From: Terriglobia bacterium
GTDB lineage: Bacteria > Acidobacteriota > Terriglobia > JAJPHL01 > JAPKYU01
Direction of reading: 5' to 3'
DNA length: 64,000 bases
Assembly: GCA_965223005.1 (NCBI GenBank)
Contig: CBDCVK010000010.1
Location: 992,001 to 1,056,000, forward strand
Shown piece after piece: positions 24,249-37,389 of the stretch (its first letter is position 1; the number at the start of each line of letters is the position of its first letter). The notes beneath the pieces are model-generated. The model did not search any database and was not told the DNA's origin. It worked only from the letters and a program-made list of their open reading frames with translations. The translations under genes and the position numbers were made by a program.

Positions 24249-26414
24249 ATGGCTGAGAAGGTCCAGGTGACACCGGCGTCGGCGGAATCGGCGGCGGCCG
24301 CTTTCAAGCCCTATGTGTCGCCCCAGGAGTCGCCTGCGGAGTTCACGGTCAAGGCGGTGATCTTAGGCGCCTTCTTTGGGCTCGTTTTCGGGGCGGTCAC
24401 CGTCTACCTGGCCTTGCGGGCGGGGCTGACGGTGAGCGCCTCGGTCCCCATCGCCGTGCTGGCCATCGCTCTGTTCAAGCGCCTGGGGCGAGCCACCATC
24501 CTGGAAAACAACATTGTGCAAACGGCGGGCTCGGCGGGCGAGTCCATTGCCGCCGGCGTCGTCTTTACCCTGCCGGCACTGATTTTCCTGGGGTTCGCCG
24601 AATACTTCACGCCCTCGCGCATCTTCCTGGTCGCGCTGGTAGGCGGCTGCCTGGGCGTGCTGTTCATGATCCCGCTGCGGCGCTACCTGATCGTGAAGGA
24701 GCACGGCAATCTCACCTATCCGGAAGGAACCGCCTGCGCCGACGTGCTGGTGGCCGGCGAGCGCGGTGGCTCCTTCGCCGGCAGGGTCTTCTGGGGGCTG
24801 GGCATCGGAGCGGTCTACAAGTTCCTGATGGAGGGCTTGCAGTTGTGGAAAGACACGCCCATCTATCAGCCGCGCTGGTATCCGGGTGGCACGGTGGCTG
24901 GCAACATCACTCCGGAATACCTGGGGGTGGGCTACATCATTGGGCCGCGAATCGCGGGCACGATCATTGCCGGAGGCGTGCTGTCCTGGCTGGTGCTGAT
25001 TCCGGCCATCAAGTTTTTCGGCGGAAACCTCACGACGCCCATCTTCCCCGGCACCATTCCCATCGCCGAGATGAGTGCCGCCCAGATCTGGCACAACTAC
25101 ATCCGCCCGATCGGCGCGGGCGCGGTGGCCATGGCGGGACTGTTCACAGTGTGGCGCACTATCCCCACCATTGTGGAGTCGTTCCGCGCCGGCGTGCGCG
25201 ATCTGCTGGCGGGCCGTGAAGGACGGGAGGAACGCGAAGCCCGCCTGCGCACCGACCAGGACCTGCCCCTGACACTGGTGTTGGGCGGCTCACTGGTGAT
25301 GCTGGTCGTGATCTGGGGGCTGCTGCAGTTCAACATCAATCCTGGCGCTCCGCTCGGCAACCTGATCGCCGCCGTCCTGATGGTGGTCTTCGGGTTTCTC
25401 TTCGTCACCGTGTCCTCACGGGTGGTGGGCATCATCGGCAGCTCGGCCAACCCGATTTCCGGCATGACCATTGCGACGCTGATGGCCACCTCGCTGCTGT
25501 TTCTACTGGTGGGCTGGACCGGGGGCGTCTTCCCCGCCGTGGCGCTATCTATTGGGGCAGTCGTGTGCATTGCCGCTGCCAACGGCGGAGCTACTTCGCA
25601 GGATCTGAAGACCGGCTTCCTGGTGGGCGGCACACCGTGGCGCATGCAGCTCGCCTTGATCGTAGGGACGGTGGTTTCGGTGATGGTGATCGGCTACACG
25701 ATCACCTACCTGAACCAATCGGAAACCCGGGTGCGCGAAACTACTCTTGCCGTGGATGCGCCCGCGCTGGCGGAAGCCAAATCCGAGGGCACGGTGGAAT
25801 ACCAGGGCCGGCAGTATCAACGGCTGACGGTGATCGGCTCCCACCAGGTTCCCGACGGCACCTACTACGCCGATCCGGCCACCGGCCAGGTCCAGTATCA
25901 ACTGGTGCACGGCATCGGCTCCGAGCGGCTGCCGGCGCCGCAGGCGCTGTTGATGTCCACGGTGATCAACGGCATCCTCAACCAAAACTTGCCGTGGCGC
26001 CTGGTGCTGTTGGGCGTGTTCCTGGTGATCGTGGTCGAATTGCTCGGGGTGCGCTCGCTGGCGTTTGCAGTGGGCACCTACCTGCCGATCTCCACCAGCG
26101 CCGCTATTTTTGGCGGCGGCGCGGTGCGCTGGCTTGTGGACCGCAACCGCAAACCGGCTGCCGCGGCCGGGGCACACGGCGAAAGCGAGGTGGGCAGCGG
26201 GGAGCTGTTCGGCTCGGGCCTGATTGCCGCCGGTGCGCTGGTGGGTCTGCTGGTCATCGCCCCCATCCGCGCCAATAAGTTGGAGGAAAAGTTTGCGATC
26301 GGGCCTGGGATTTTGGGCGACTTTGCCACCAGCAACCCGATGGCGCTGGTCATGTTCCTGCTGCTGGCTCTCGTCCTCTATCTGTTCGCCCGCAAACCTC
26401 TGGATCAGGCTTAG
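24249..26414 (+). CDS. OPT-family oligopeptide transporter
   Basis: ENNIVQT, YPEGTAC, SANPISGMTIA, SQDLKTG, APQA. Confidence 0.95.
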   Translation: MAEKVQVTPASAESAAAAFKPYVSPQESPAEFTVKAVILGAFFGLVFGAVTVYLALRAGLTVSASVPIAVLAIALFKRLGRATILENNIVQTAGSAGESIAAGVVFTLPALIFLGFAEYFTPSRIFLVALVGGCLGVLFMIPLRRYLIVKEHGNLTYPEGTACADVLVAGERGGSFAGRVFWGLGIGAVYKFLMEGLQLWKDTPIYQPRWYPGGTVAGNITPEYLGVGYIIGPRIAGTIIAGGVLSWLVLIPAIKFFGGNLTTPIFPGTIPIAEMSAAQIWHNYIRPIGAGAVAMAGLFTVWRTIPTIVESFRAGVRDLLAGREGREEREARLRTDQDLPLTLVLGGSLVMLVVIWGLLQFNINPGAPLGNLIAAVLMVVFGFLFVTVSSRVVGIIGSSANPISGMTIATLMATSLLFLLVGWTGGVFPAVALSIGAVVCIAAANGGATSQDLKTGFLVGGTPWRMQLALIVGTVVSVMVIGYTITYLNQSETRVRETTLAVDAPALAEAKSEGTVEYQGRQYQRLTVIGSHQVPDGTYYADPATGQVQYQLVHGIGSERLPAPQALLMSTVINGILNQNLPWRLVLLGVFLVIVVELLGVRSLAFAVGTYLPISTSAAIFGGGAVRWLVDRNRKPAAAAGAHGESEVGSGELFGSGLIAAGALVGLLVIAPIRANKLEEKFAIGPGILGDFATSNPMALVMFLLLALVLYLFARKPLDQA

Positions 26415-27132: not shown

Positions 27133-28392
27133 TCAATCATCCGGTGGCCGGTCATGCAATCTAACCTGTTCGACGCGCTCCATGACGCGCAGCAGGTTGC
27201 CGCCGAGAATTTTTACTAGGTCCGGCTCCGAGTAGCCGCGCCGCAGCAGTTCGGCGGTGAGGTGCGGCAACTGGGAGACGTCCTCCATGCCGCGCGGCAT
27301 GGTCGCACCGTCGAAGTCCGAGCCGAGCCCCACGTGGTCCACGCCCACCAGCTTCACCACGTGGTCAATGTGGTCGGCGATGCGCTCCACACCCGGCCGG
27401 GGCAGGCGGGCGTCGAAGGTCAGCTCCAGTCGGAGCTTCTCGCGGGCCAGCCGGGCTGGGTCAGCCTTCCACTTCTGCTCCAGCCGGCGCTCCTGCTGCC
27501 GAAACTCCGCGCTCACCTTATTCCAGGCTGTCGTGTAGTTGGCGTCCAGAAACGCGGAGTAAAAATTGATCTGGATGAGGCCGCCGTTTTCGGCCAGCGC
27601 TCGGATCATTGCGTCGGTCATGTTGCGCGGCACATTCGCCAGCGCCCTGCAGGAGCTGTGGCTGGCGATGACCGGGGCCTGCGTCACCTCCAAGGCGTCG
27701 TAGAAGGTTCGGTCCGAGACGTGGGATATGTCCACCATCATGCCCAGCCGGTTCATGCGAGCGACGATGGCGCGGCCCTTCTCGTTCAACCCGCGCTTGC
27801 GGCCGGCATCGCCGGAGGAGCCGGCCCAGGAGGTGGAAATGGACCAGGTGAGGGTCATGTAGCGGACACCCAGCCGGTAGAAAACGTCGAGCACGCGCGG
27901 CTTGTCTTCGATGGCGTGTCCGCCTTCAACACCCATCAACGCGGCCAGCTTGCCGGCGGCATGAACGCGGCGGATGTCGTCCGCCGTGCGCGCCAGCTCC
28001 AGCTCGCTCGAGTGGCGCTCCACCTGGTCCAGCACGGCGTCAATTTGCGTCAGGGCCTGCCGCAAGTAATGCGGCTTGTAGCTGGGGCGCACCCAGATGG
28101 AAAAAAAGACGGCATCCAGGCCACCCTCGCGCATGCGGGGCAGGTCCAGATGGCCGTCCGGGTCGCGGAGGCTCAGGTCCAGGTTCTCTTCCACCAGGCG
28201 CTTCGTGGTGTCGGCGTGGGTGTCAATGACGATTGCGCGGCGGTGAATCTGTCGCGCCTGGCTCAGGCTGTCCCTCGGTTGCGGATTGCGGACTTCAGGT
28301 TTCGAATTTCGCGTTTCGGATTCCGGATCTGCTGGGCGGCAGGCCAGAACAATGAGCGCCAGGAGGAATAAAAGGACAACGGACCGAATCAT
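27133..28392 (-). CDS. Membrane dipeptidase (peptidase M19), probable lipoprotein
   Basis: IDTHAD, VEGG, DISH, ASHS, GSDFDG; lipobox-like VLAC; start ATG 28392. Confidence 0.93.
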   Translation of the reverse strand: MIRSVVLLFLLALIVLACRPADPESETRNSKPEVRNPQPRDSLSQARQIHRRAIVIDTHADTTKRLVEENLDLSLRDPDGHLDLPRMREGGLDAVFFSIWVRPSYKPHYLRQALTQIDAVLDQVERHSSELELARTADDIRRVHAAGKLAALMGVEGGHAIEDKPRVLDVFYRLGVRYMTLTWSISTSWAGSSGDAGRKRGLNEKGRAIVARMNRLGMMVDISHVSDRTFYDALEVTQAPVIASHSSCRALANVPRNMTDAMIRALAENGGLIQINFYSAFLDANYTTAWNKVSAEFRQQERRLEQKWKADPARLAREKLRLELTFDARLPRPGVERIADHIDHVVKLVGVDHVGLGSDFDGATMPRGMEDVSQLPHLTAELLRRGYSEPDLVKILGGNLLRVMERVEQVRLHDRPPDD

Positions 28393-28655
28393 TCGGTGAA
28401 CTCCACCTGCTGCCCGAGCTCCTGGATCAGGGCGTCGGCCACTTCTTCGGCGGTGCCCGGCCGTTCCTGTTTCGGCGTCCAGTTCCACTGATTCAGATAG
28501 TCGTCGGTGCCGGCCAAGCCTTCCCTCATGGCGATCTTGTCAATCTCTTCCTGGAACCGGCCGGGCATGGGCCGCGACAGAGTTCTCTGGCCCTCGGCGG
28601 ACACCTTCACCTGCGCCGGGATATGCTTCCAGTAGAGGATCTGGTATTTCGCCAT
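28389..28655 (-). CDS. 'Virulence factor' family small protein
   Basis: YWKHIPAQV...RFQEEIDKIAM...YLNQW family pattern. Confidence 0.8.
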   Translation of the reverse strand: MAKYQILYWKHIPAQVKVSAEGQRTLSRPMPGRFQEEIDKIAMREGLAGTDDYLNQWNWTPKQERPGTAEEVADALIQELGQQVEFTE

Positions 28656-28663
28656 ATGTTTCC

Positions 28664-29716
28664 CTACCCAGCGGTGACGGGCTCCAGTTCCCCCTTGCGG
28701 TAGGCGCGGAGGAAGTTCTTACAGTTCCGGTCGTGCCCTGTCAGCATGTCCTGGGCCAGCTGATAGGGCCGGGAACTCTTGTCTGCCGAGAACACCCGGT
28801 TCAGATCGTTGCCCACGGGGTCCACGATGCCGCTGTCGGCGCCTGCTTCCACGGAGAGATTGATGAACGCCTCGTTGATCAACCGGCGGCAAGGGAGGCC
28901 GAACGACACGTTGCTCAAGCCGCCCGTCAGGTGAATCTTCTCGCCGTACTTCTCACGCAGCTGGCGGATCGCCTCCAGGTAATGGTTTCCGAACTGACCG
29001 TCCACCGAGATGGGGAAGACCAGGCCGTCCACATAAAGGTCCTCAATGGGGAGGCTCTTAGCCAGGGCGGTATCGATCACCTGGGAAGCGTTGGCCACTC
29101 GCTCCTCGGTGTTTTGGGGCATGCCGCTGGAGCCAGAGGCCGTGACGATCACCGACAGGTTGCGCTCCCGGGCCAGGTCCAGTGCCTCCAGCCGTTCCAG
29201 CGAGGCGGAGTTCAGCATGGCCCGGCCTGTGCTCCCCGAGCAGGCCTGAATGCCGGCGCGAATGGTGTCCAGATTGGAGGAATCAATCGAGAGCGGCACC
29301 GGCGCCAGCGGTTCGATGGCGCGCACCAGCCAGCGCATCGCTTCGAACTGTTTGTCCGGGTAGAGGGAGACCTCGTCCACGTTCAAGTCCAGGAAGTCCG
29401 CGCCGCCTTTGAGCTGCCGCGTCATCAGCGCGCGCAGGTACTCCATTCCTTCGGTGGCGGCGGGCTCGCCGCCCGACATGGCCGCCCTCACCGCGATGGC
29501 CACGTGCTTGACGCGCCCCTCCTCATAGTCCTGCTGGCTCTTGACCTGTTCCGGGATGATCAGGTAGCGGGTTTCTCCGCTCGCGCTGGTGTAGCGGACC
29601 GCCTCCTCACCGCTGGGAGTGGTGGTGACTAGCTTGCCAGCGCGGCGCAAGACGCGGGTCGTGTGGATGTTTTCCCCGATGACAACGAATTCCTTGTTCA
29701 AGTCTTGAGGTTTCAT
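28664..29716 (-). CDS. Pterin-binding corrinoid:tetrahydrofolate methyltransferase (AcsE/MetH-Ptr-like)
   Basis: IGENI, FLDLNVD, SIDSS, LNS, GGLSNVSFGLP, IVDP. Confidence 0.9.
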   Translation of the reverse strand: MKPQDLNKEFVVIGENIHTTRVLRRAGKLVTTTPSGEEAVRYTSASGETRYLIIPEQVKSQQDYEEGRVKHVAIAVRAAMSGGEPAATEGMEYLRALMTRQLKGGADFLDLNVDEVSLYPDKQFEAMRWLVRAIEPLAPVPLSIDSSNLDTIRAGIQACSGSTGRAMLNSASLERLEALDLARERNLSVIVTASGSSGMPQNTEERVANASQVIDTALAKSLPIEDLYVDGLVFPISVDGQFGNHYLEAIRQLREKYGEKIHLTGGLSNVSFGLPCRRLINEAFINLSVEAGADSGIVDPVGNDLNRVFSADKSSRPYQLAQDMLTGHDRNCKNFLRAYRKGELEPVTAG

Positions 29717-31260
29717 TGTTCCTTTGGTTTCTTAGGGGCGTTATGGTCCCGCTCGAGGAAGGCATTGGCCCAGGCGCTGGTGCCTCGCAGCGCTCCATTG
29801 CGGAAGACCACGGGCCGGTCGAGCATCTGCTCCTCCTCGCCATAGGCCTTCAGACGCTGGTAGGCGCGGCTCCAGATGCACTCCTTCTCCCCGACTTCGC
29901 ACAGGCCCTGCCGCGTTCCTCCGCAGGGACCGTTGCGTTGGTTCTTCACGCATTGCGACTCGGGACAGAGGTAGGCGATGTCCGGGAGGGAGCAGTCGCC
30001 GCAGTCCTGACAGTCGAAGGCTAGGATTTTGAATGCGTGCTCGGCCGTGTGCAGCGCCTTGCGTATCCGCGGCGATCCCTCCACCGACTGGTAGAGCGCC
30101 TTTCCCGCCCGGAACCCCGAGGAGCCCTGCTCGAATAGCTCCCCGTGCACCAGGCGGTTGAGCCGGTAGGAGAGCGGCGCGCCGGCCGGCGAGGCTTTCG
30201 AGCGTAAGTACTCGCGGTTGACCTCCGAGGAACTGAGGCCCGTCTTTGGATCGGGCTCAAAGTAGTAGAACTCGTCAGGCTGGGCGAAACGAATCTGGCG
30301 GGCAAACTCCTTCCAGTCATTGTCGCCGAAGCTGTCCCAGATCTGGAGGATCCGCTCGTAGTCTTCGAACCGCAGATGCCCCCCCAGGTAGACCCCCCGA
30401 TAGCCGAGTCCCCGGGCGATGGCGCACTGCTTGGCGGCGAACTCCAGGAAGAATGCCTTGCCCTTGTCGGGCGAGGCTCCCTGCTCCTCGGCCAGCCCCA
30501 GCAGTTCATCGGTGATCACGGCGCCGGGAATCCGGCCAGCGTGAAAGAAGCGTGAGGCGGGGGTGCTGAGGACGTAGACATTGCACAGAACGGGCACCTG
30601 GAGTCCCTTCAGCGCCATGTAGCGCAGTAACTCATCCTGCTTTCGCGCGTCGTAGCCGATCTGGTTGATGATGAAGCGGGCGCCGGCCTCGACCTTCTTG
30701 GCCAGCTTAAAGTACTGCGGCATCACCTCGCCCTCATAGCGCTTGTGGTTGTTCACCACCGCGCCGAGGAAAAATTTGGTCCCCTCCATGTGGGAGTACA
30801 TTTGCAGCAAACCGACCGAATCCGTGTCAAAGACAGGGGCGGCCTGGCCCTGGTAGCCGGTCACCGGGTAGTCACCGGACAGCGTCAGCACATTGTGGAA
30901 GCCTTCGCTCGCCAACTTCCAGCCGCGGCTCTCCAGCGCGTTGCGGTTCCAATCCTTGCAAGAGAGGTGAATGATGACCTCCTGGCCGCGGGAGATCAGG
31001 TCGGTGCCCAAGGTGTCAGCGCTAAGCATCGCGCTCCCGCCCGGGTTGTCCGTGATGCTGAGGGCATGGAAGCGCGGATGCTCGGCCAGCAACCGCGCCA
31101 TTTCCAGAACGCGGCGGCCGCTGCGCTCGATGATCAGACCGCGGGAAGTCACCAGCTCGACCACAATGAGGAAGCTGGAGGTTTCCTCCATCTGGTAGCG
31201 GAACGTTCGCTTGCTCCAGGCACCGGAAGTTGGCCGCGTGGGCCCGGGAGATGCGCTCAC
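29713..31260 (-). CDS. metF: Methylene-THF reductase fused to C-terminal MetV-like Cys-rich domain
   Basis: ITDNPGG, HLSCKDWN, LSGD, KKVEAGA; then CQDCGDC...CPESQCVKNQRNGPCGG...CE...CIW. Confidence 0.85.
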   Translation of the reverse strand: MSASPGPTRPTSGAWSKRTFRYQMEETSSFLIVVELVTSRGLIIERSGRRVLEMARLLAEHPRFHALSITDNPGGSAMLSADTLGTDLISRGQEVIIHLSCKDWNRNALESRGWKLASEGFHNVLTLSGDYPVTGYQGQAAPVFDTDSVGLLQMYSHMEGTKFFLGAVVNNHKRYEGEVMPQYFKLAKKVEAGARFIINQIGYDARKQDELLRYMALKGLQVPVLCNVYVLSTPASRFFHAGRIPGAVITDELLGLAEEQGASPDKGKAFFLEFAAKQCAIARGLGYRGVYLGGHLRFEDYERILQIWDSFGDNDWKEFARQIRFAQPDEFYYFEPDPKTGLSSSEVNREYLRSKASPAGAPLSYRLNRLVHGELFEQGSSGFRAGKALYQSVEGSPRIRKALHTAEHAFKILAFDCQDCGDCSLPDIAYLCPESQCVKNQRNGPCGGTRQGLCEVGEKECIWSRAYQRLKAYGEEEQMLDRPVVFRNGALRGTSAWANAFLERDHNAPKKPKEQ

Positions 31261-32888
31261 GGCTTCCCTCCGAACGCCGCAGGCATGGGCTTAAACTGGC
31301 AGCCCTCGACAAAGACGTCAAAAAAGTCGGGGGTCGTTTCCAGCTCAATGTGCTCGATGCCTTTGACCAGTTCCTCGATGGCGCGGCGCTTGCGCCGCGA
31401 CAGCAGGATCTGCCGCGCTCCGGCCACCGCGGCGTTGCCTACCTTGACGACGCGATCCTCGGGCACCGGCGCCAGGAACCCGATCTCGACGGCATGGCCC
31501 ACGTTGACGTAATTCGCGAAACCACCGGCCAGGTACAGCCGGCTGATGTCAGCCGGACGCACACCGAACCGGCGCAAGGCGATGTACTGGCCGCAGTAAT
31601 TGGCGGCTTTGGCCTGCGCCAGGTTGCTGGCGTCTTGCCGCGAGAAGGTGATGCCCTGCTCGGGCACGATGGGGAGCTCGTACTGCTTCTTGGCAAAGAC
31701 GCCTTTCGGCGTCATCAGCCCATGCCGGCGCAGCTCGGCGAGTAGATCGATCAGACCCGAGCCGCAGATTCCCTTCGGCGCGGCGTTGCCGATGGTCTGG
31801 TAGTCCCAGGTATTGCCGCTCAGCCGCAGCGCCTCGATGGCTCCGTCGCCGGCGGTCATGCCGTACTTGATGAGCCCACCCTCAAAGGCTGGACCCGCCG
31901 GGCAGGAAGTGGCCAAAAGCCGGCCGGCATGGCCCACCACTACCTCTGTATTGGTGCCCACATCCACCAACATGACCGGGTCGCGTTGGGAGGCGATATC
32001 GATCGCGACCAGGTCGGCGAGGGTGTCCGCCCCCACGTGGCTGGCCACCAGGGGAGCCCCCACGACACGGGCCTTGGGATGCGTCAGCAGGCCCAGGCGG
32101 TGAGCCAGCTCGGTCAGCGCCGTCGTTGTGCGCTGCCCGGCCAGGTATTCGTGCTCGACCAGCGACTTGTAGGGTTTCTGGCCGATGGACTGCACGTCCA
32201 GATTGAAGAACAGGTCGCGCATCGTAGAGTTGCCGACCAGAATGGCCTCGTAAATCTCATGGCGCACGATTCCCAGTGTCTGACACATCGCCCGCAGCTC
32301 GTAGTTGACTGCCGTGATCACACTCTTGTGGAGTTCACCCTGGAATGGGCCGGAATCGTAGGAGATGCGGTGCATGATGTCGCTGCCGCCGAAGCGCTGA
32401 GGGTTCTCCAGCGAGCCCAGGCAGGCGACCGCGCCCGTCTCCAGGTCCACGAGCTCGACAACAATGGTGGTGGTACCCAGGTCAATGGCCAGGCCGTAAA
32501 GGTGGCCGCGGTAGTGGTCAACCACCTCGCCGTCGTAGAGGACTTTGTCGCCGGCGCGGGTGACCAACGGATCCAGTTCAACTGCGGTGGCGGCGGAACT
32601 GGTCAGAATCTGCGGGCGGCGGCGGAGCAGTTCGAACGCAACGTCAATGTCGGGATCTTCGACCACCGCCTGGCAGGCCAGCCGGTAGTTCTCCCGCAGG
32701 AACTCTTCCGCCTCGGTGCGCGGACATAAGGCCTCCACGCCGCGCTTGATTTCCACGATGCATTCGTGACAGATGCCGCTGCGGCCGCAGGAGGTGGGCA
32801 CCTGCACGGCGAGATCGTCGGCATAGTCGAAAACGGTGCGGCCCCGCTCCAGGCTGCAGCGGCTGCTGTCATAGGAGATGTGGGCCAT
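31257..32888 (-). CDS. ASKHA-type reductive activator of corrinoid enzymes (RACE/RACo) with N-terminal 2Fe-2S domain
   Basis: CGRSGICHEC...RLACQ; IDLGTTT; DVGTNTE; AGPAFEG; GICGSG; AGGF. Confidence 0.93.
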   Translation of the reverse strand: MAHISYDSSRCSLERGRTVFDYADDLAVQVPTSCGRSGICHECIVEIKRGVEALCPRTEAEEFLRENYRLACQAVVEDPDIDVAFELLRRRPQILTSSAATAVELDPLVTRAGDKVLYDGEVVDHYRGHLYGLAIDLGTTTIVVELVDLETGAVACLGSLENPQRFGGSDIMHRISYDSGPFQGELHKSVITAVNYELRAMCQTLGIVRHEIYEAILVGNSTMRDLFFNLDVQSIGQKPYKSLVEHEYLAGQRTTTALTELAHRLGLLTHPKARVVGAPLVASHVGADTLADLVAIDIASQRDPVMLVDVGTNTEVVVGHAGRLLATSCPAGPAFEGGLIKYGMTAGDGAIEALRLSGNTWDYQTIGNAAPKGICGSGLIDLLAELRRHGLMTPKGVFAKKQYELPIVPEQGITFSRQDASNLAQAKAANYCGQYIALRRFGVRPADISRLYLAGGFANYVNVGHAVEIGFLAPVPEDRVVKVGNAAVAGARQILLSRRKRRAIEELVKGIEHIELETTPDFFDVFVEGCQFKPMPAAFGGKP

Positions 32889-32892
32889 CTTT

Positions 32893-32928
32893 GCTCAGGA
32901 GGTTCCCGGGGCTCAGGAGGTTCCCGGG
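32893..32928. repeat. Perfect 18-bp tandem duplication
   Basis: gctcaggaggttcccggg x2. Confidence 0.9.
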
Positions 32929-32929
32929 G

Positions 32930-33172
32930 TCAGGCAGTTTCCCACGCCTTTCGGTAATCCAGCTTGTCGTCGCTGGCGCACACGGGCAGCTCCCCAGCCT
33001 GCTTGGGCTTGCGCTTGTTGCGGCAGCCAAACTGCGCCGTGCATTGGTCCAGGCGGTTCTTGTAAGGGCAACGCCGGAGAGACAGCTCGTCGGCGTGCGC
33101 CGCGATCCCCGTCAGGATTTCGGTGAGCCGGTCCAGGCGTTTTTGGTACTCGTGTTGGTCGATTTTCTCCAT
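32930..33172 (-). CDS. Hypothetical 80-aa four-cysteine protein
   Basis: Fills the operon gap exactly; Cx8Cx5Cx14C. Confidence 0.8.
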   Translation of the reverse strand: MEKIDQHEYQKRLDRLTEILTGIAAHADELSLRRCPYKNRLDQCTAQFGCRNKRKPKQAGELPVCASDDKLDYRKAWETA

Positions 33173-33188
33173 GCCGTCGCCCTAGAGT

Positions 33189-33938
33189 CTAGACCGGCAC
33201 CCCCATCAGCCGCTTGGCTAGCGCGACGCAGGCCATCGCGTCCTTGCCGTAACCGTCGGCTCCCATGTCGTCGGCAAAGTCCTGTGTGACAGGCGCGCCG
33301 CCGACCATGATTTTCACGTTGTCCCGCAGGTCGGCGTCAATAAAGGCTTCGATCGTCTTGCCCATGTTGGGCATGGTGGTGGTCAGCAGCGCGGACATCC
33401 CCATCAGGGGGGCCTCGTGCTCCTCGACGGCCTCAATGAACCGGTCCGCCGAGGTGTCCACTCCCAGGTCAATCACCACAAAGCCGGTGCCTCGCAACAT
33501 CATGATGCACAGGTTCTTGCCGATGTCGTGCAGGTCTCCTTTGACGGTGCCCATGACCACCTTGGCAATGGGCTTAACGCCGGAGGCCGACAGGATGGGC
33601 TCAATGTAGGCCATGCCCGCCTTCATTGCCCGAGCGCAGGCCAGAACTTCCGGCACAAAGATGAAGTTCTCCCGGAACTTGATGCCGACAATCCCCATGC
33701 CGGCAATCAAGCCGTCGTCCATCACCTCCAGCGCCACGGTCCCTGCCTCCAGCTCCTCTTTGGTCAGTTGATCCACCGTGCCGTTGTCACCGTCAATCAG
33801 CGCCGCCGCGATGGTCTGCATTTTCGGCCTGACCTTCGCGAAGGTGTCAATCATGCGCTGCCGCTCTTCGGGACGCTCGATGTACTCTTCGATCTCCTGC
33901 CGGATGAAGTCGTTGGAAATGTCGCTGAGCTCCGCCAT
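33189..33938 (-). CDS. Corrinoid (B12-binding) protein, MtaC/MttC-like
   Basis: Cap FVPEVL; GDLHDIGKN (DxHxxG); SALLTTT; VGGAPV. Confidence 0.95.
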   Translation of the reverse strand: MAELSDISNDFIRQEIEEYIERPEERQRMIDTFAKVRPKMQTIAAALIDGDNGTVDQLTKEELEAGTVALEVMDDGLIAGMGIVGIKFRENFIFVPEVLACARAMKAGMAYIEPILSASGVKPIAKVVMGTVKGDLHDIGKNLCIMMLRGTGFVVIDLGVDTSADRFIEAVEEHEAPLMGMSALLTTTMPNMGKTIEAFIDADLRDNVKIMVGGAPVTQDFADDMGADGYGKDAMACVALAKRLMGVPV

Positions 33939-33959
33939 AGTGTGTTCCTAAGCCCGTTC

Positions 33960-34997
33960 CTAGTTGGCCGAGGCGTGCTGCCGGTGCCACTCGCGCACGG
34001 CCCCGGGAATCTCCTTAAGGTTCTCGACCGTAGTCTGCAGCGGGATGGCGCACTCCGGGCCCACCAACTGCACGCCCGCGTCCAGGTTCTTCCAAACCTC
34101 TTGCCGGACTTCCTCAGGGCCCCTCGAATACAGGATCTCCGGATTGTTGATGTTTCCCACCAGCGAGATGCGGTTCTTCATGATCGCCATCGATTCGGCG
34201 GGGTCGTTCTTGGAATCGTAGTGAAACGCCGCGAATCCGGTCTGCGCAATGTACTCCATGCGGTCCAGCGTGCGGCCACAGATGTGCATAATCAGCGGAA
34301 TCGGAATCCGCTCGGCAAACTCGATGTGCATGTCGCGCAGGTAGCGCCGGTAGTACTCGCCGCTGACCAGGTCGCCGGTGGCGTGGTCGGGCAGAGTCAG
34401 GGCATCGGCGCCCGCTTCGATCTGGGCCAGGCCAAAGTCAATGGTGACCTGCTTGAGTGCCTCCAGGCACTGCATGGTCTTGCCCGGATCATCCAGCGAC
34501 AGCAGCAGAAACGGCTCCACGCCGAAGCAGTGGTAGGCCAGCGACCAGGGTCCCATCGTCTTGCCGACGATCGCCACCTCGTCGCCGAACTCTCGGCGCA
34601 GAATCTTGATGGCCTGGATCACGCACTGCATGTCGGGATGCTTCAGCACGTCCGCGGGAATCCGGATGTCTTCCGGCTTCTCGAAGATCGGCTCGCGCAT
34701 TTTCACCGTCGGCCAGTTGTCTTTCTGCTCCCACTGGATCTTGCAGCCCAGTGCGGAAGACTCCTGAATGATGCTGAAGACCGGCATGATGGTGTCGAAG
34801 CCGAACTCGGTGTGTCCGGTGGCGGCCAGCCGCGCCATCAGTTCCGGCTTGCGGTTGGCGTCCGGGAAGGGTGCGTCCACCAGATCCATCATCTCCACCG
34901 TGGCCACCGAGGTGGGGTTGCAGACCGGCGTGCGGTCCACCGGCTCGCGGCGCAAGGCGGCCAGCACGCGCTGGCGACTCGTCATTGGTCCGACCAT
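33960..34997 (-). CDS. MtaA/CmuA-family (UroD-fold) methylcobamide methyltransferase
   Basis: RVLAAL..EPVDRTP; GPWSLA; HICG and GPEC Zn ligands; GNINNP. Confidence 0.9.
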   Translation of the reverse strand: MVGPMTSRQRVLAALRREPVDRTPVCNPTSVATVEMMDLVDAPFPDANRKPELMARLAATGHTEFGFDTIMPVFSIIQESSALGCKIQWEQKDNWPTVKMREPIFEKPEDIRIPADVLKHPDMQCVIQAIKILRREFGDEVAIVGKTMGPWSLAYHCFGVEPFLLLSLDDPGKTMQCLEALKQVTIDFGLAQIEAGADALTLPDHATGDLVSGEYYRRYLRDMHIEFAERIPIPLIMHICGRTLDRMEYIAQTGFAAFHYDSKNDPAESMAIMKNRISLVGNINNPEILYSRGPEEVRQEVWKNLDAGVQLVGPECAIPLQTTVENLKEIPGAVREWHRQHASAN

Positions 34998-35018
34998 CTC
35001 CTTCTCCTCTCTTTCCCT

Positions 35019-35654
35019 CTACGCTTTTTGCTGGCTCGGCGCGACCAACTGGCCGCGGGAGGCAGCCGCCTCTTCTTCGCGCAACACCGCGCGCAGGTTC
35101 AAGGTGCGAACCAGCAACAACCCGACCAGCGCATCGTGGGTCTGCCCGCAGGGGAATGCCACCCGGTCGGCGCTGCCTTCCACCGGCGACATCTCGGCCA
35201 GCTTCCGGAATCCGGCTGCGATGGCTTCCACCCGCTTAGACTTGTCTTCCTCGGGCCCGTCTGCCGTTACCTGGTAGACCCCCGCCCCCAGGCTCGCCAC
35301 GACGATGTTTCGGCCCGATCGTTTGTCAAAGGCGCGGAGCGGCTTCGGTTCGAGCGCCGGGGTGGAGGGCAGCTTGCATGCCTCCAGAAAACCACGCTTG
35401 GCCCCAGCCTGGTGCGCCGAGCCACAGGAGAAGCGGAGCCGAACGTCCGTCCGCTCCGCCCCCGCCAGGTTCTCGAGCGCCCGGGCCACAAATTCGATTC
35501 GTTCGCGAACGCCTTCCAGCCGGCTGTAGCTGTGCACCAAGTATTCCGGCTGGTGACCGCCATCCTGGCGATAGAGAGCAACGGTGATGTCCTGGCAATG
35601 GGGATCCATCGGGACCAGTTCGACGCGTTTACCCAGATCCAGCGTTAGGCCCAT
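35019..35654 (-). CDS. Hypothetical protein, first gene of the methyltransferase operon
   Basis: AGGAGG RBS before ATG 35654; two FxCGxxH repeats. Confidence 0.82.
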   Translation of the reverse strand: MGLTLDLGKRVELVPMDPHCQDITVALYRQDGGHQPEYLVHSYSRLEGVRERIEFVARALENLAGAERTDVRLRFSCGSAHQAGAKRGFLEACKLPSTPALEPKPLRAFDKRSGRNIVVASLGAGVYQVTADGPEEDKSKRVEAIAAGFRKLAEMSPVEGSADRVAFPCGQTHDALVGLLLVRTLNLRAVLREEEAAASRGQLVAPSQQKA

Positions 35655-35717
35655 AGTCAGGATCCTCCTGGCAGAGAGTGCCGGCCGGCAGGGAGTCAAG
35701 CCGGAAGGGAATCAGGT

Positions 35718-35747
35718 TTGACATCCTGCCTGCTTGTCTGCTAAGCT
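35718..35747 (+). promoter_or_regulatory. Putative sigma70 promoter for gntR-purU
   Basis: TTGACA-18nt-TAAGCT with extended TGn; GTATAC palindrome at 35757-35762. Confidence 0.55.
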
Positions 35748-35807
35748 GACACTTCAGTATACCCCAGTTGGCAGCAAGCTGTAAAGCCCCAGGAAGGTGT
35801 CAAGCCG

Positions 35808-36626
35808 ATGGTTGAGTCTCTCCAGCCAGTCGCTCGCAGGTTGCTCAGCGAGGGTATCGTCGAGCAGATCACCGCTATGATTGCGCGCAACGTGTTCCAG
35901 CCGGGCGACCGCCTCCCCTCCGAGAAGGAGCTCTGCCGGCAGTTCCGGGTGGGCCGGACCTCGGTTCGGGAAGCACTGCGGTCGCTCTCGGTGATGGGGA
36001 TCCTGGAATCGCACGCGGGCGAAGGAACCTTCGTTTGCCTCAACCCGGGCCGCTATCTGGAGCGGGCCTTTCAGTGGGGCCTGCTGCTGGACCGCAAGGT
36101 AGTCGAGGACCTGGTGGAAACCCGGTTGATGCTGGAGTCGCAAACGGCCGATCTGGCTGCCCAGAAGGCAACGAAGAAAGACCTGAGCGACATCGAAGTG
36201 GCCCTTCAGGGCATGGAGAAATCGCTGGCCGATCCGGAGAAATACCTGGAAAGTGACCTGCGGTTCCACCTGGGCATCGCCCGGGCGACGCAGAACTCGA
36301 TCCTACACAACCTGCTGACCACCATCCGGGGCTATCTGCAGGCCTTTATCCGGGAGACCCTGGCGTCTTCCCCGGCCAGCGACTCGACCCGGCGAGCCGC
36401 TGTTTCCCTCGCCGAGCACAAGAAAATCTTGCGAGCCCTCAAGAAAGGTGACCCCGAGGAAGCGCGGCGGGCCATGACCGAGCACATCGTTTCCTCGCGA
36501 GACGATCTGAGGAAGCATCTGTCGAACCGTCCCCATGCGCGAGACCGCGACGTTGTTAGTCTTCTGCCCCGACCAGAAGGGGCTCGTGGCCAGGATTTCC
36601 GGGTTCATCTTTCGCCACGGCGGTAA
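35808..36626 (+). CDS. GntR/FadR-family transcriptional regulator
   Basis: GDRLPSEKELCRQFRVGRTSVREAL wHTH plus FCD domain. Confidence 0.93.
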   Translation: MVESLQPVARRLLSEGIVEQITAMIARNVFQPGDRLPSEKELCRQFRVGRTSVREALRSLSVMGILESHAGEGTFVCLNPGRYLERAFQWGLLLDRKVVEDLVETRLMLESQTADLAAQKATKKDLSDIEVALQGMEKSLADPEKYLESDLRFHLGIARATQNSILHNLLTTIRGYLQAFIRETLASSPASDSTRRAAVSLAEHKKILRALKKGDPEEARRAMTEHIVSSRDDLRKHLSNRPHARDRDVVSLLPRPEGARGQDFRVHLSPRR

Positions 36627-37389
36627 CATTCTGGACGCCGACCAGCACACGGATCTCGAGACCGGGGTGTTTCTGGCGCGGATGGAATGGGATCTGGAGG
36701 GGTTCGAGATCCCGCGCGCGCAAATCGCCGCGCGTTTTCAGCCGCTGGCCCAAGAACACCAGATACAGTTCGAGGTCCACTTCAGCGATGACGCTCCGAA
36801 ACTCGCGATCTTCGCCTCCGGGATGCTGCATTGCCTCCAGGATCTGCTGCTCCGGCACCGGGCCGGCGAGTTCCAGGCCGAGATCGCAATGGTCCTCAGC
36901 AATCATCTGGAGGCCAATGCGGTGGCGCAGGAGTTCGGAATCCCGTTCCTTCACTTCCCCATTACCGCGGCCAGCAAGAAGGAGCAGGAGGCCAGGGAGA
37001 TCGACGAGCTGCGGGCCAGAGGAATTGACCTGATCGTGCTGGCCCGCTATATGCAGATTCTGAGCGAGGATTTTGTCGCCGCCTTTCACAACCGGATCAT
37101 CAATATCCACCATTCCTTTCTTCCGGCCTTTGCGAGGGGCCAAGCCTACCACCAGGCTTTCCAACGTGGGGTGAAGCTGATCGGAGCCACCTCTCACTAC
37201 GTGACAATGGATCTGGATGAAGGTCCGATCATTGACCAGGAGGTCGTGCGCGTGAGCCATCGTGACTCAGTCCAGGATCTGATTCGCAAGGGGAAGGATC
37301 TGGAACGAGTGGTTCTGGCCCGCGCAGTGCGCCTGCACCTGGCTCATCGGGTGTTGACTTACGGGAACAAGACCGTTGTTTTCGACTAA
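36535..37389 (+). CDS. purU: Formyltetrahydrofolate deformylase
   Basis: CPDQKGLVA ACT domain; LARYMQIL, INIHHSFLP, GATSHYV, LDEGPII. Confidence 0.96.
   Translation: MRETATLLVFCPDQKGLVARISGFIFRHGGNILDADQHTDLETGVFLARMEWDLEGFEIPRAQIAARFQPLAQEHQIQFEVHFSDDAPKLAIFASGMLHCLQDLLLRHRAGEFQAEIAMVLSNHLEANAVAQEFGIPFLHFPITAASKKEQEAREIDELRARGIDLIVLARYMQILSEDFVAAFHNRIINIHHSFLPAFARGQAYHQAFQRGVKLIGATSHYVTMDLDEGPIIDQEVVRVSHRDSVQDLIRKGKDLERVVLARAVRLHLAHRVLTYGNKTVVFD

Follow-up and report, generated by a model that had tools for sequence, protein, structure and literature searches.

Which compound gives up its methyl group to the corrinoid protein encoded in this stretch of DNA, and what acceptor takes the group over? 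The window, by which we mean the whole stretch of 64,000 nucleotides from contig CBDCVK010000010.1 of a Terriglobia bacterium, holds a packed minus-strand operon that encodes a methyltransferase of the MtaA/CmuA family, a corrinoid protein with its activase, a folate branch, and two proteins of no classified family, here called Unk211 and Cys4. We propose with moderate confidence that this operon is a corrinoid-dependent demethylase for a methylated sulfur (possibly selenium) compound, feeding tetrahydrofolate (THF). A first-pass annotation of the same DNA had read the cluster as a self-contained catabolic route with two novel components that may act on a methyl-thioether or a methyl halide, and its interpretation was partly supported by our analysis. 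It was refined in three respects: halides and ethers are less likely substrates than sulfur or selenium compounds, the output half turns out to be a known one, and a variant with homocysteine output exists.

Components of the operon

Eight minus-strand open reading frames (ORFs) are packed between 28389 and 35654, with intergenic gaps of -4 to 41 bases in the ORF list. From Unk211 onward they encode Unk211, a URO-D protein, the corrinoid protein, Cys4, a RACo-type activase, a MetF-MetV fusion, a pterin-binding methyltransferase (MT2) and a small PF13769 protein, and a gntR-purU pair lies divergent from them on the plus strand. Domains were called on the operon proteins with Pfam and NCBIfam, and the domains and tight spacing fit one operon. 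All ORFs and domains were found as the first-pass annotation had described them, as was the four-part architecture for methyl transfer (substrate methyltransferase MT1, corrinoid protein, activator and MT2), here accompanied by MetF-MetV and GntR-PurU. Pfam likewise agrees with its statement that MttB, MtaB and a homocysteine S-methyltransferase domain (PF02574) are absent from the operon proteins.

The URO-D protein (33960..34997, minus strand; 345 aa; PF01208 at 3.1e-66) bears most directly on the substrate. Its score of 256.7 bits against the TIGR01463 mtaA_cmuA model (cut-off 235.4) makes it a member of that subfamily, although it differs from MtaA and MtbA themselves in falling below both equivalog cut-offs (NF040654, 234.8 against 400; NF041608, 200.7 against 600), and it was also below the HemE cut-off (TIGR01464, 68.9 against 302.95). 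The closest PDB sequence match was Methanosarcina mazei MtaA (4ay7; E 2.3e-54), and His238-x-Cys240 and Cys316 of the URO-D protein align with the LHICG and PGCGI segments of that chain. These three residues were invariant in 23 URO-D sequences from several phyla. According to PMC10418091, a His-Cys-Cys set belongs to the S- and Se-methyltransferases of the UroD superfamily, while O-demethylases have carboxylates at these positions. The set in the window's protein is a putative zinc site of the S-methyl type, and this invariant set favours a methyl-thioether or selenoether over a methyl halide or a methoxy substrate. Of the substrates first suggested, the methyl-thioether was retained with the selenoether added, and the methyl halide became less favoured. 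The O-demethylase MT I/CdmB branch has carboxylate or non-coordinating residues in place of the cysteines, which argues against membership of the URO-D protein in it; no O-demethylase or CdmB chain was matched among PDB sequences at E<=0.001, provided that such chains are in that copy of the PDB, which is unconfirmed. We propose that the URO-D enzyme is the substrate-side methyltransferase (MT1).

The corrinoid protein (33189..33938, minus strand; 249 aa) combines a B12-binding_2 cap (PF02607) with a B12-binding domain (PF02310). Its DxHxxG motif is formed by D135, H137 and G140 within a GDLHDIGKN segment that was invariant in the alignment, and the protein was below the cut-offs of the specific NCBIfam models for MtgC, MtbC and MtaC. 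The RACo/RamA-like protein (31257..32888, minus strand) shows the domains by which an activase was recognized, namely an N-terminal 2Fe-2S domain (Fer2, PF00111), the RACo middle domain (PF17651) and the ASKHA C-terminal domain (PF14574), and it was below the cut-offs of the specific AcsV and RamA models of NCBIfam. The Cys4 gene (32930..33172, minus strand) always lies between the genes for the corrinoid protein and RACo. Its product of 80 aa, with no match in Pfam or NCBIfam, consists of a long N-terminal helix followed by RCPYKNR-x4-C-x5-C-x14-C, and the four cysteines, which probably make up a metal or Fe-S site, were invariant in 22 sequences. An AF2 model of Cys4 reached a pLDDT of 73; neither a Foldseek match nor a PDB profile match was obtained, and the ESM Atlas returned unnamed clusters only. 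A hypothetical protein encoded between MT2 and ASKHA in Sinorhizobium meliloti was compared as a potential relative of Cys4 and was found to be unrelated.

The first ORF, Unk211 (35019..35654, minus strand; 211 aa), was assigned the ATG start at 35654 rather than a TTG at 35699 because its homologues open with MGxTxDLG. It had no match in Pfam, NCBIfam or PDB sequences, and no match was found when 21 members of the family were compared with Pfam at E<=5. It was noted that a collection of 5.8 billion proteins holds 638 homologues, mostly at 50-60% identity and mostly labelled hypothetical, and a profile search of 1.84 billion representatives recovered 283 clusters (50% identity) with no bridge to another family. 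In the AF2 model (pLDDT 85, pTM 0.81), two alpha/beta halves follow one another in tandem. A C-x3-H motif that is invariant in the homologue alignment (C77/H81 and C169/H173) immediately precedes a helix in each half, which suggests a Cys2His2 metal site where the halves meet. Foldseek returned nothing from the PDB at E<=1e-3. The best VIA-align score over 48,161 chains was Z 6.5, for one half-domain only (urea carboxylase, EtuB, HIT proteins), a value within the range of common arrangements by which the model is placed in neither a known nor a new fold. The ESM Atlas yielded nothing usable for Unk211, and there was no match in plasmids.

Three candidate relationships of Unk211 were rejected. 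A PDB profile search matched antibody light chains (best E 7.6e-4), which was taken as a chance motif match because the Unk211 model is alpha/beta and because antibody chains make up a disproportionately large share of the PDB. Identity with DUF1638 (PF07796), a genetically required and unexplained partner of RamA-like activases in Proteobacteria according to PMC5764234, was not supported, as hhalign gave probabilities of 0.2% and 0.1% against the DUF1638 proteins of Azoarcus and S. meliloti; a search of the window's genome found no DUF1638. The sole fused form of Unk211, P0121, was rejected as a Rosetta-stone fusion, and its arginine-rich middle looks like frameshifted read-through from an FCD regulator gene. 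The two components regarded as novel in the first-pass annotation, Unk211 and Cys4, are genuine and conserved across phyla, and belong to no classified family. A literature search (main texts, supplements excluded) returned no paper on this cluster or on either family.

The remaining three genes form the output half. The MetF-MetV-type fusion (29713..31260, minus strand) carries PF02219 at residues 54-279 and PF12225 (DUF5981) at 399-481, and is proposed to be the reductase that oxidizes CH3-THF. The pterin-binding protein (28664..29716, minus strand; PF00809) is a predicted methyl-corrinoid:THF methyltransferase (MT2). Its closest PDB sequence match was 4o0q (6e-36), followed by AcsE/MeTr chains; the depositor named 4o0q 'dihydropteroate synthase DHPS', and we take it to be the O-demethylase MT II of Desulfitobacterium. 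The small 'virulence factor' protein (28389..28655, minus strand; PF13769 at 7.4e-15), on which a literature search returned no paper, is a conserved member of corrinoid/THF modules: its gene adjoins MetV-MetF-MT2 in Azoarcus and S. meliloti, and in related loci it lies beside MT2 or a homocysteine methyltransferase.

These genes were encountered together in well-annotated surroundings. On plasmid pAZKH of Azoarcus sp. KH32C the order is corrinoid protein, DUF1638, 'virulence factor', MTHFR C-terminal domain protein, MTHFR, 'dihydropteroate synthase' and ASKHA, flanked by purU and glycine betaine ABC transporter genes, and pSymB of S. meliloti carries the same set adjoining a gene of the trimethylamine methyltransferase family. 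The MTHFR and DUF5981 ('MTHFR C-terminal', MetV-like) parts are separate adjacent genes in Azoarcus, in Sinorhizobium and in the type-B loci described below. In Ruegeria pomeroyi, the corrinoid and pterin subunits are reported to be common to glycine betaine demethylation and methionine synthesis, and a MetF paralogue beside the pterin gene to be the protein most induced on methylated osmolytes (PMC12478193). PF13769-MetV-MetF-MT2-RACo is an already annotated proteobacterial module, used aerobically and serving MttB-type betaine demethylases there. The input half differs, with URO-D, Unk211 and Cys4 in place of the proteobacterial MttB and DUF1638. What sets the cluster apart is thus this input half with its two unclassified proteins; the downstream half is a known module in Azoarcus, Sinorhizobium and roseobacters.

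Related loci and their two outputs

We sought relatives of the operon through a pattern scan for the Unk211 family in 185,579 species-level genomes, which returned at least 183, many of them carried by sponge symbionts. The best 80 of the 183 were compared by tblastn with the window's proteins, and 59 of these loci have full flanks. They derive from Acidobacteriota, Poribacteria, Latescibacterota, Gemmatimonadota, Acidimicrobiia, Opitutales, Bryobacterales and one Pseudomonadota metagenome-assembled genome (MAG). A URO-D gene directly follows Unk211 in all 78 loci with room for it, and the corrinoid protein and Cys4 come next in 71 of 75 and RACo in 60 of 70. The check on cluster co-occurrence across MAGs proposed in the first-pass annotation came out in its favour, the order Unk211-URO-D-corrinoid-Cys4-RACo recurring in these 80 loci from several phyla. 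The Unk211/URO-D pair stood alone in three of the 59 full-flank loci, and the first four genes lacked a nearby RACo in six loci (Bryobacterales). Identity to the window across phyla was unusually high for URO-D (73-86%) and the corrinoid protein (71-85%).

A second, diverged version of the gene set was also noted. Among 401 genomes of the window's phylum, 16 possess the Unk211 family, 15 of them in a diverged form scoring 125-144 bits. In five such type-B loci (L101-L105, from genomes G378, G086, G226, G394 and G370), Unk211 is 36-38% identical to that of the window. All five loci fetched share the order PF13769 (present in four of the five), Unk211, URO-D, pterin methyltransferase, corrinoid protein, Cys4 and RACo; none of them has a GntR gene, and in three of the four that were scanned MetV and MetF are encoded next to the cluster by individual genes. 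That a set of seven to nine genes occurs in two diverged versions is strong evidence that its parts work together.

The acceptor side varies among the relatives. A PF02574 homocysteine S-methyltransferase gene occurs in 22 of the 80 related loci. A pterin methyltransferase lies within 10 kb in 30 of the 59 full-flank loci, and 14 of the 59 carry the PF02574 gene with neither a pterin methyltransferase nor MetF-MetV within that distance. The typical order in this homocysteine variant is ApbA, homocysteine methyltransferase, PF13769, Unk211, URO-D, corrinoid protein, Cys4 and RACo. Because relatives exchange the folate branch for a homocysteine methyltransferase, this family of clusters is partly a methionine-forming system. 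In 13 genomes with this variant that were tested, the sole relative of the pterin enzyme was found in every case inside a MetH-sized ORF of about 1250-1330 aa, the size of canonical MetH. Loci of the variant, with an ApbA/PanE-type reductase and the homocysteine methyltransferase ahead of the cluster and no folate branch, are L014, L024, L026, L028, L030, L035, L036, L038, L040, L048, L060, L066 and L072, and most of them also show a two-domain GNAT gene after RACo.

The flanks were scanned over 139 of the 140 ORFs of 19 type-A loci (one long ORF of L012 was left out) and over 30 ORFs of four type-B loci. Reductases for 2-oxo or 2-hydroxy acids recur beside the cluster in different lineages and belong to three unrelated families (Ldh_2 in nine loci, ApbA in 13, and 2-Hacid_dh in L031, L101 and L104), and an HpcH/HpaI aldolase is present in L031 and L101. 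These enzymes could reflect a hydroxy-acid substrate or a serine-cycle-like assimilation. In the poribacterial loci (L003-L022), a PhyH-type dioxygenase lies inside the cluster in 14 loci and Ldh_2 inside or adjoining it in nine, as at L010:15283-16080 and L010:19243-20304, and in some of them RACo is separated from MetF-MetV by inserted mobile elements (an IS605 OrfB/Cas12f-like gene and an Eco57I-type methylase gene).

Next to the window's own operon, an M19 membrane-dipeptidase gene (27133-28488, minus strand) follows the PF13769 gene on the same strand, its longest ORF overlapping that gene by 100 bases, and an OPT oligopeptide transporter (24249-26414, plus strand) lies 2 kb past it. Both are probably unrelated neighbours because the 80 related loci contain neither of them; one could imagine a connection with S-conjugated peptides.

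Methyl flow, substrate and competing explanations

In the 13 homocysteine-variant genomes tested, the pterin enzyme has no relative apart from the one within the MetH-sized ORF. The cluster of such a genome therefore cannot take its methyl group from folate; homocysteine must be what accepts the group, and URO-D the enzyme on the donor side. The most parsimonious assumption for the window's operon is the same donor role of URO-D, with THF as acceptor. The regulator bears on the identity of the donor. A GntR/FCD regulator (35808..36626, plus strand; PF00392 and PF07729) is encoded divergently from the operon and was also found in 35 of the 59 related loci with full flanks. FCD-type GntR regulators usually sense carboxylates. 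Given this type of regulator, a carboxylate inducer and a methylthio-carboxylic acid (3-methylthiopropionate, or a methionine-derived 2-oxo or 2-hydroxy acid) would be favoured over dimethylsulfide (DMS) or methanethiol as substrate.

The 153-base gap between Unk211 and gntR holds a candidate promoter, TTTACA-18-TATACT (35756..35785, minus strand), suggested by its position; it is the sole promoter-like site in the 10.7 kb scanned, where shuffled sequence would give 1.5. Rfam detected neither a cobalamin nor a SAM riboswitch between 27000 and 39000, where the sole match at E<=1 was a chance match to a microRNA. The gntR ORF (end 36626) overlaps that of purU (start 36535) by 92 bases in a different frame. 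Of the regulator's 272 residues, those after the end of the FCD domain at 227 form a long tail over the start of purU. PurU itself (36535..37389, plus strand) was identified as formyl-THF deformylase by TIGR00655 (377.7 bits against a cut-off of 285.95). RNA-library contigs from three studies, one library being labelled sponge metagenome, matched 24, 25, 13 and 9 of 30 operon bins at 95-100% identity and left the other bins uncovered. They are a weak hint that the operon is transcribed, since contigs cannot prove transcription.

In the proposed mechanism, the MtaA-like zinc enzyme, together with Unk211, would transfer a methyl group from R-S-CH3 to the corrinoid protein in its Co(I) state, from which the pterin-binding methyltransferase would hand it to THF. 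MetF-MetV would then oxidize CH3-THF to CH2-THF, which could be assimilated, or oxidized to formate via PurU and a FolD encoded elsewhere. RACo would re-reduce the corrinoid after accidental oxidation, and Cys4 would probably assist either the corrinoid protein or RACo, contributing a metal or carrying electrons. The sequence data show the genes present, their conservation, the type of zinc site and the exchange of output modules; which way the methyl group moves, the class of substrate and what Unk211, Cys4 and PF13769 do in this scheme are inferred.

An anabolic explanation would reverse the direction. In this case the operon would be a split, RACo-reactivated B12-dependent thiol methylase: MetF-MetV would make CH3-THF, MT2 would load the corrinoid, and the MtaA-like enzyme, replacing the homocysteine domain of MetH, would methylate homocysteine or another thiol. 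We consider this rather unlikely. Thiol methylation is indeed the chemistry of an MtaA-type His-Cys-Cys site, split MetH systems with RamA-like activases are described (PMC5764234), and the corrinoid and pterin subunits of roseobacters serve both methionine synthesis and demethylation (PMC12478193). The genome also lacks a full-length MetH, with TIGR02082 giving partial matches only, and the homocysteine methyltransferase gene in 22 of 80 related loci points the same way. However, because the genome encodes a full-length MetE, the operon is unneeded for methionine, and the URO-D gene is kept where a true homocysteine methyltransferase is present, so the two are not redundant. Furthermore, all 13 homocysteine-variant genomes have the MetH-sized ORF and no stand-alone pterin methyltransferase, so that the cluster there cannot take a methyl from THF, and the regulator is of the GntR/FCD type, with no SAM or B12 riboswitch.

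The remaining alternatives keep the catabolic direction or redistribute the roles. Dehalogenation of chloromethane or bromomethane onto the corrinoid, with the rest as CmuB, MetF, FolD and PurU in Methylorubrum, was suggested by the TIGR01463 mtaA_cmuA membership, by a downstream MetF and PurU logic that we take to be that of the cmu pathway, and by the many carriers among symbionts of sponges, which are presumably rich in halogenated compounds. It is nevertheless improbable: CmuA, as we understand it, fuses the methyltransferase and corrinoid domains, which here are separate ORFs 21 bases apart; a tblastn search of 72,556 plasmids returned 27 records, all below 30% identity, of which the annotated ones were labelled hemE or generic URO-D and none cmuA, although the presence of the cmu plasmid in that collection is unconfirmed; a carboxylate-sensing FCD regulator is a poor fit for a gas; and a homocysteine-output variant would not be expected. 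That the enzyme is an O-demethylase acting on methoxylated aromatic acids or another kind of methyl ether, like Odm/Mtv in acetogens or Mto in archaea, is highly improbable in our view. The four-component architecture is identical, the closest PDB match of MT2 is the presumed Desulfitobacterium MT II (4o0q), and soil Acidobacteria meet lignin-derived methoxy acids, which would suit the FCD regulator. Against these points stand the His-Cys-Cys ligands, where O-demethylases have carboxylates for the cysteines (PMC10418091), and the closeness of the enzyme to MtaA, with no O-demethylase-type PDB chain recovered at E<=0.001, if such chains are there. The least credible alternative, to which we give very little weight, makes Unk211 a substrate-activating methyltransferase of a new kind, with the MtaA-like enzyme passing the methyl group to a thiol cofactor. 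Unk211 is the tightest-linked partner of the URO-D gene, the pair occurring alone in three of 59 loci, and its two C-x3-H motifs could hold a substrate-activating metal. Yet known corrinoid methyltransferases, which we take to be TIM barrels throughout, do not resemble the modelled pair of small alpha/beta domains, three methyltransferases would be left per corrinoid protein, and C-x3-H is not kept across the wider family.

Several points nevertheless count against the demethylase that we prefer. The direction of methyl flow is read from context alone, and every methyl-transfer step is reversible in principle. The His-Cys-Cys site would equally suit a thiol acceptor and is presumably also that of CmuA. 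In some members of the diverged Unk211 subfamily the C-x3-H pairs are gone, and the metal site is not certain. It was noted that purU adjoins the cluster in only three of the 80 related loci, and that no transporter or substrate-specific gene is conserved in the scanned flanks (19 type-A and four type-B loci). In the window's genome, FolD is encoded about 960 kb from the operon on the same contig (C10:63032), and no CobQ was found in this 96%-complete genome; the system would therefore depend on imported corrinoid.

Host genome and relation to known systems

The window's genome (G000) is 3.24 Mb in size and 96% complete. It contains no MttB (PF06253), its only URO-D proteins are HemE (PF01208, 431 bits) and the operon's enzyme, with no second corrinoid-type URO-D, and its only pterin-binding proteins are FolP and the operon's enzyme. 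The description of the cluster as self-contained in the first-pass annotation is borne out by this content, and the FolD gene that it proposed looking for is present, far from the operon. Two COX1 genes were found, by which the genome is predicted to be able to respire oxygen. The operon is a self-contained extra in a respiring bacterium, and the host is an aerobic soil or sponge bacterium that, judging from its gene content, probably depends on imported corrinoids. At least eight ORFs of the genome carry B12-binding domains above the cut-off, and five of them (387-543 aa) lie within 8 kb on contig C6 (62114-70101).

A 630-aa ORF that matches the homocysteine-binding region of MetH is located on another contig (G000:C2:403469-404326, locus L081), and at L033:6234-8123 a 630-aa ORF with PF02574 fused to an MTHFR domain (like YitJ) adjoins purU-gntR and the cluster. 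By analogy with roseobacters, the 630-aa homocysteine-domain protein may accept methyl groups from the same corrinoid protein. A gene of the SBP56 (methanethiol oxidase) family was found at G000:C10:1060404-1061777 (651.7 bits), 33 kb from the operon and 4.4 kb past the end of the window. Strong SBP56 matches (E<=1e-100) were recorded in six of the 16 carriers of the Unk211 family against 21 of 385 non-carriers in the phylum sample (the 385 including the unpublished genome G024). This link is only suggestive, because the carriers fall in few genera of close kin.

In mechanism, the input side most resembles the thioether systems MtsA and MtpA of Methanosarcina, and the output side the Mtg systems of roseobacters and Desulfitobacterium. 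MtsA/MtsB and MtpA/MtpC, which act on dimethylsulfide, methanethiol and 3-methylthiopropionate, likewise combine an MtaA-type UroD zinc enzyme with a separate corrinoid protein, demethylating thioethers onto Co(I) while an ATP-dependent activase keeps the corrinoid reduced. However, their methyl group goes to coenzyme M in strict anaerobes, and they lack a pterin methyltransferase, MetF-MetV, PF13769 and relatives of Unk211 or Cys4. The Mtg set (MtgB/MtgC/MtgD(A)-MetF2-RamA-DUF1638) and the Azoarcus/S. meliloti module share with the window the corrinoid protein, the pterin methyltransferase, RACo/ASKHA, MetF with DUF5981, PF13769 and a nearby purU, as well as oxygen-respiring hosts and the sharing of modules with methionine synthesis. 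The substrate enzyme there is of the MttB family, whereas here it is of the URO-D/MtaA type; DUF1638 is present there and lacking in the window's genome, and Cys4 has no counterpart there.

CmuA/CmuB of Methylorubrum extorquens CM4 also unites an MtaA/CmuA-family methyltransferase, a corrinoid carrier, a pterin methyltransferase, a dedicated MetF and PurU, but we take its methyltransferase and corrinoid parts to be fused, in contrast to the separate genes here, and the conserved extra proteins of the window are unrelated to CmuC. The type 1 mlp clusters (Kountz and Balskus 2023, PMC10418091) and the sdm genes of Methanococcus voltae have MtaA-like His-Cys-Cys enzymes, a corrinoid protein, a RACE activase and a proposed role with methyl-sulfur or methyl-selenium compounds. 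As described in that source, type 1 mlp clusters lack a THF methyltransferase, encode two or three Mlp paralogues (at least an Mlp2 and an Mlp3) and are confined to obligate anaerobes, whereas the present system has a single corrinoid-type URO-D gene, THF or homocysteine output, and aerobic hosts. The O-demethylases of acetogens and Desulfitobacterium (MT I, corrinoid protein, MT II and activating enzyme) and Cdm of Acetobacterium dehalogenans (PMC13222342) follow the same four-component logic, and among solved structures their MT II type comes nearest to the window's pterin enzyme; however, MT I and CdmB are placed in the O-demethylase branch with another metal site, in strict anaerobes (PMC10418091, PMC13222342). 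By the sequence definitions tested, the system lies outside MtaA, MtbA, HemE, CmuA (as a fusion), MttB, MetH (there being no PF02574 part) and type 1 mlp, and inside the broad MtaA/CmuA subfamily.

Corrinoid-dependent demethylation is viewed mainly as a trait of anaerobes. Its use by aerobes was demonstrated only recently, for glycine betaine (PMC12478193). If the demethylase proposed here is real, it would extend corrinoid demethylation to methylated sulfur in aerobic groups that are abundant and for the most part uncultured (Acidobacteriota, Poribacteria, Latescibacterota and Gemmatimonadota). Proposals of a cobalamin-dependent DMS methyltransferase in aerobes go back to 1993, and the enzyme was described as still unidentified in 2019 (PMC6548844); the cluster is a candidate gene class for activity of this type, not necessarily on DMS itself. 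A bolder and tentative suggestion, which we think possible rather than probable, is that the cluster is the long-postulated cobalamin-dependent methyl-thioether methyltransferase of oxygen-respiring bacteria, either Visscher and Taylor's 'DMS methyltransferase' or the enzyme that demethylates 3-methylthiopropionate in the double-demethylation route of dimethylsulfoniopropionate (DMSP). It would then require two protein families not met before in B12 biochemistry, one with a Cys2His2 site that partners the MtaA-like enzyme and one with four cysteines that partners the corrinoid protein and activase. Its output could be wired to folate, supplying carbon and energy, or to homocysteine, supplying methionine, and the system would be widespread among symbionts of sponges and Acidobacteriota of soils.

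What is new here is the presence of two unannotated conserved families strictly linked to an MtaA-like enzyme and its corrinoid protein. The switch between folate and homocysteine output shows how such systems are rewired, and the strict linkage of Unk211 and Cys4 points to further requirements of B12-dependent methyl transfer under oxic conditions.

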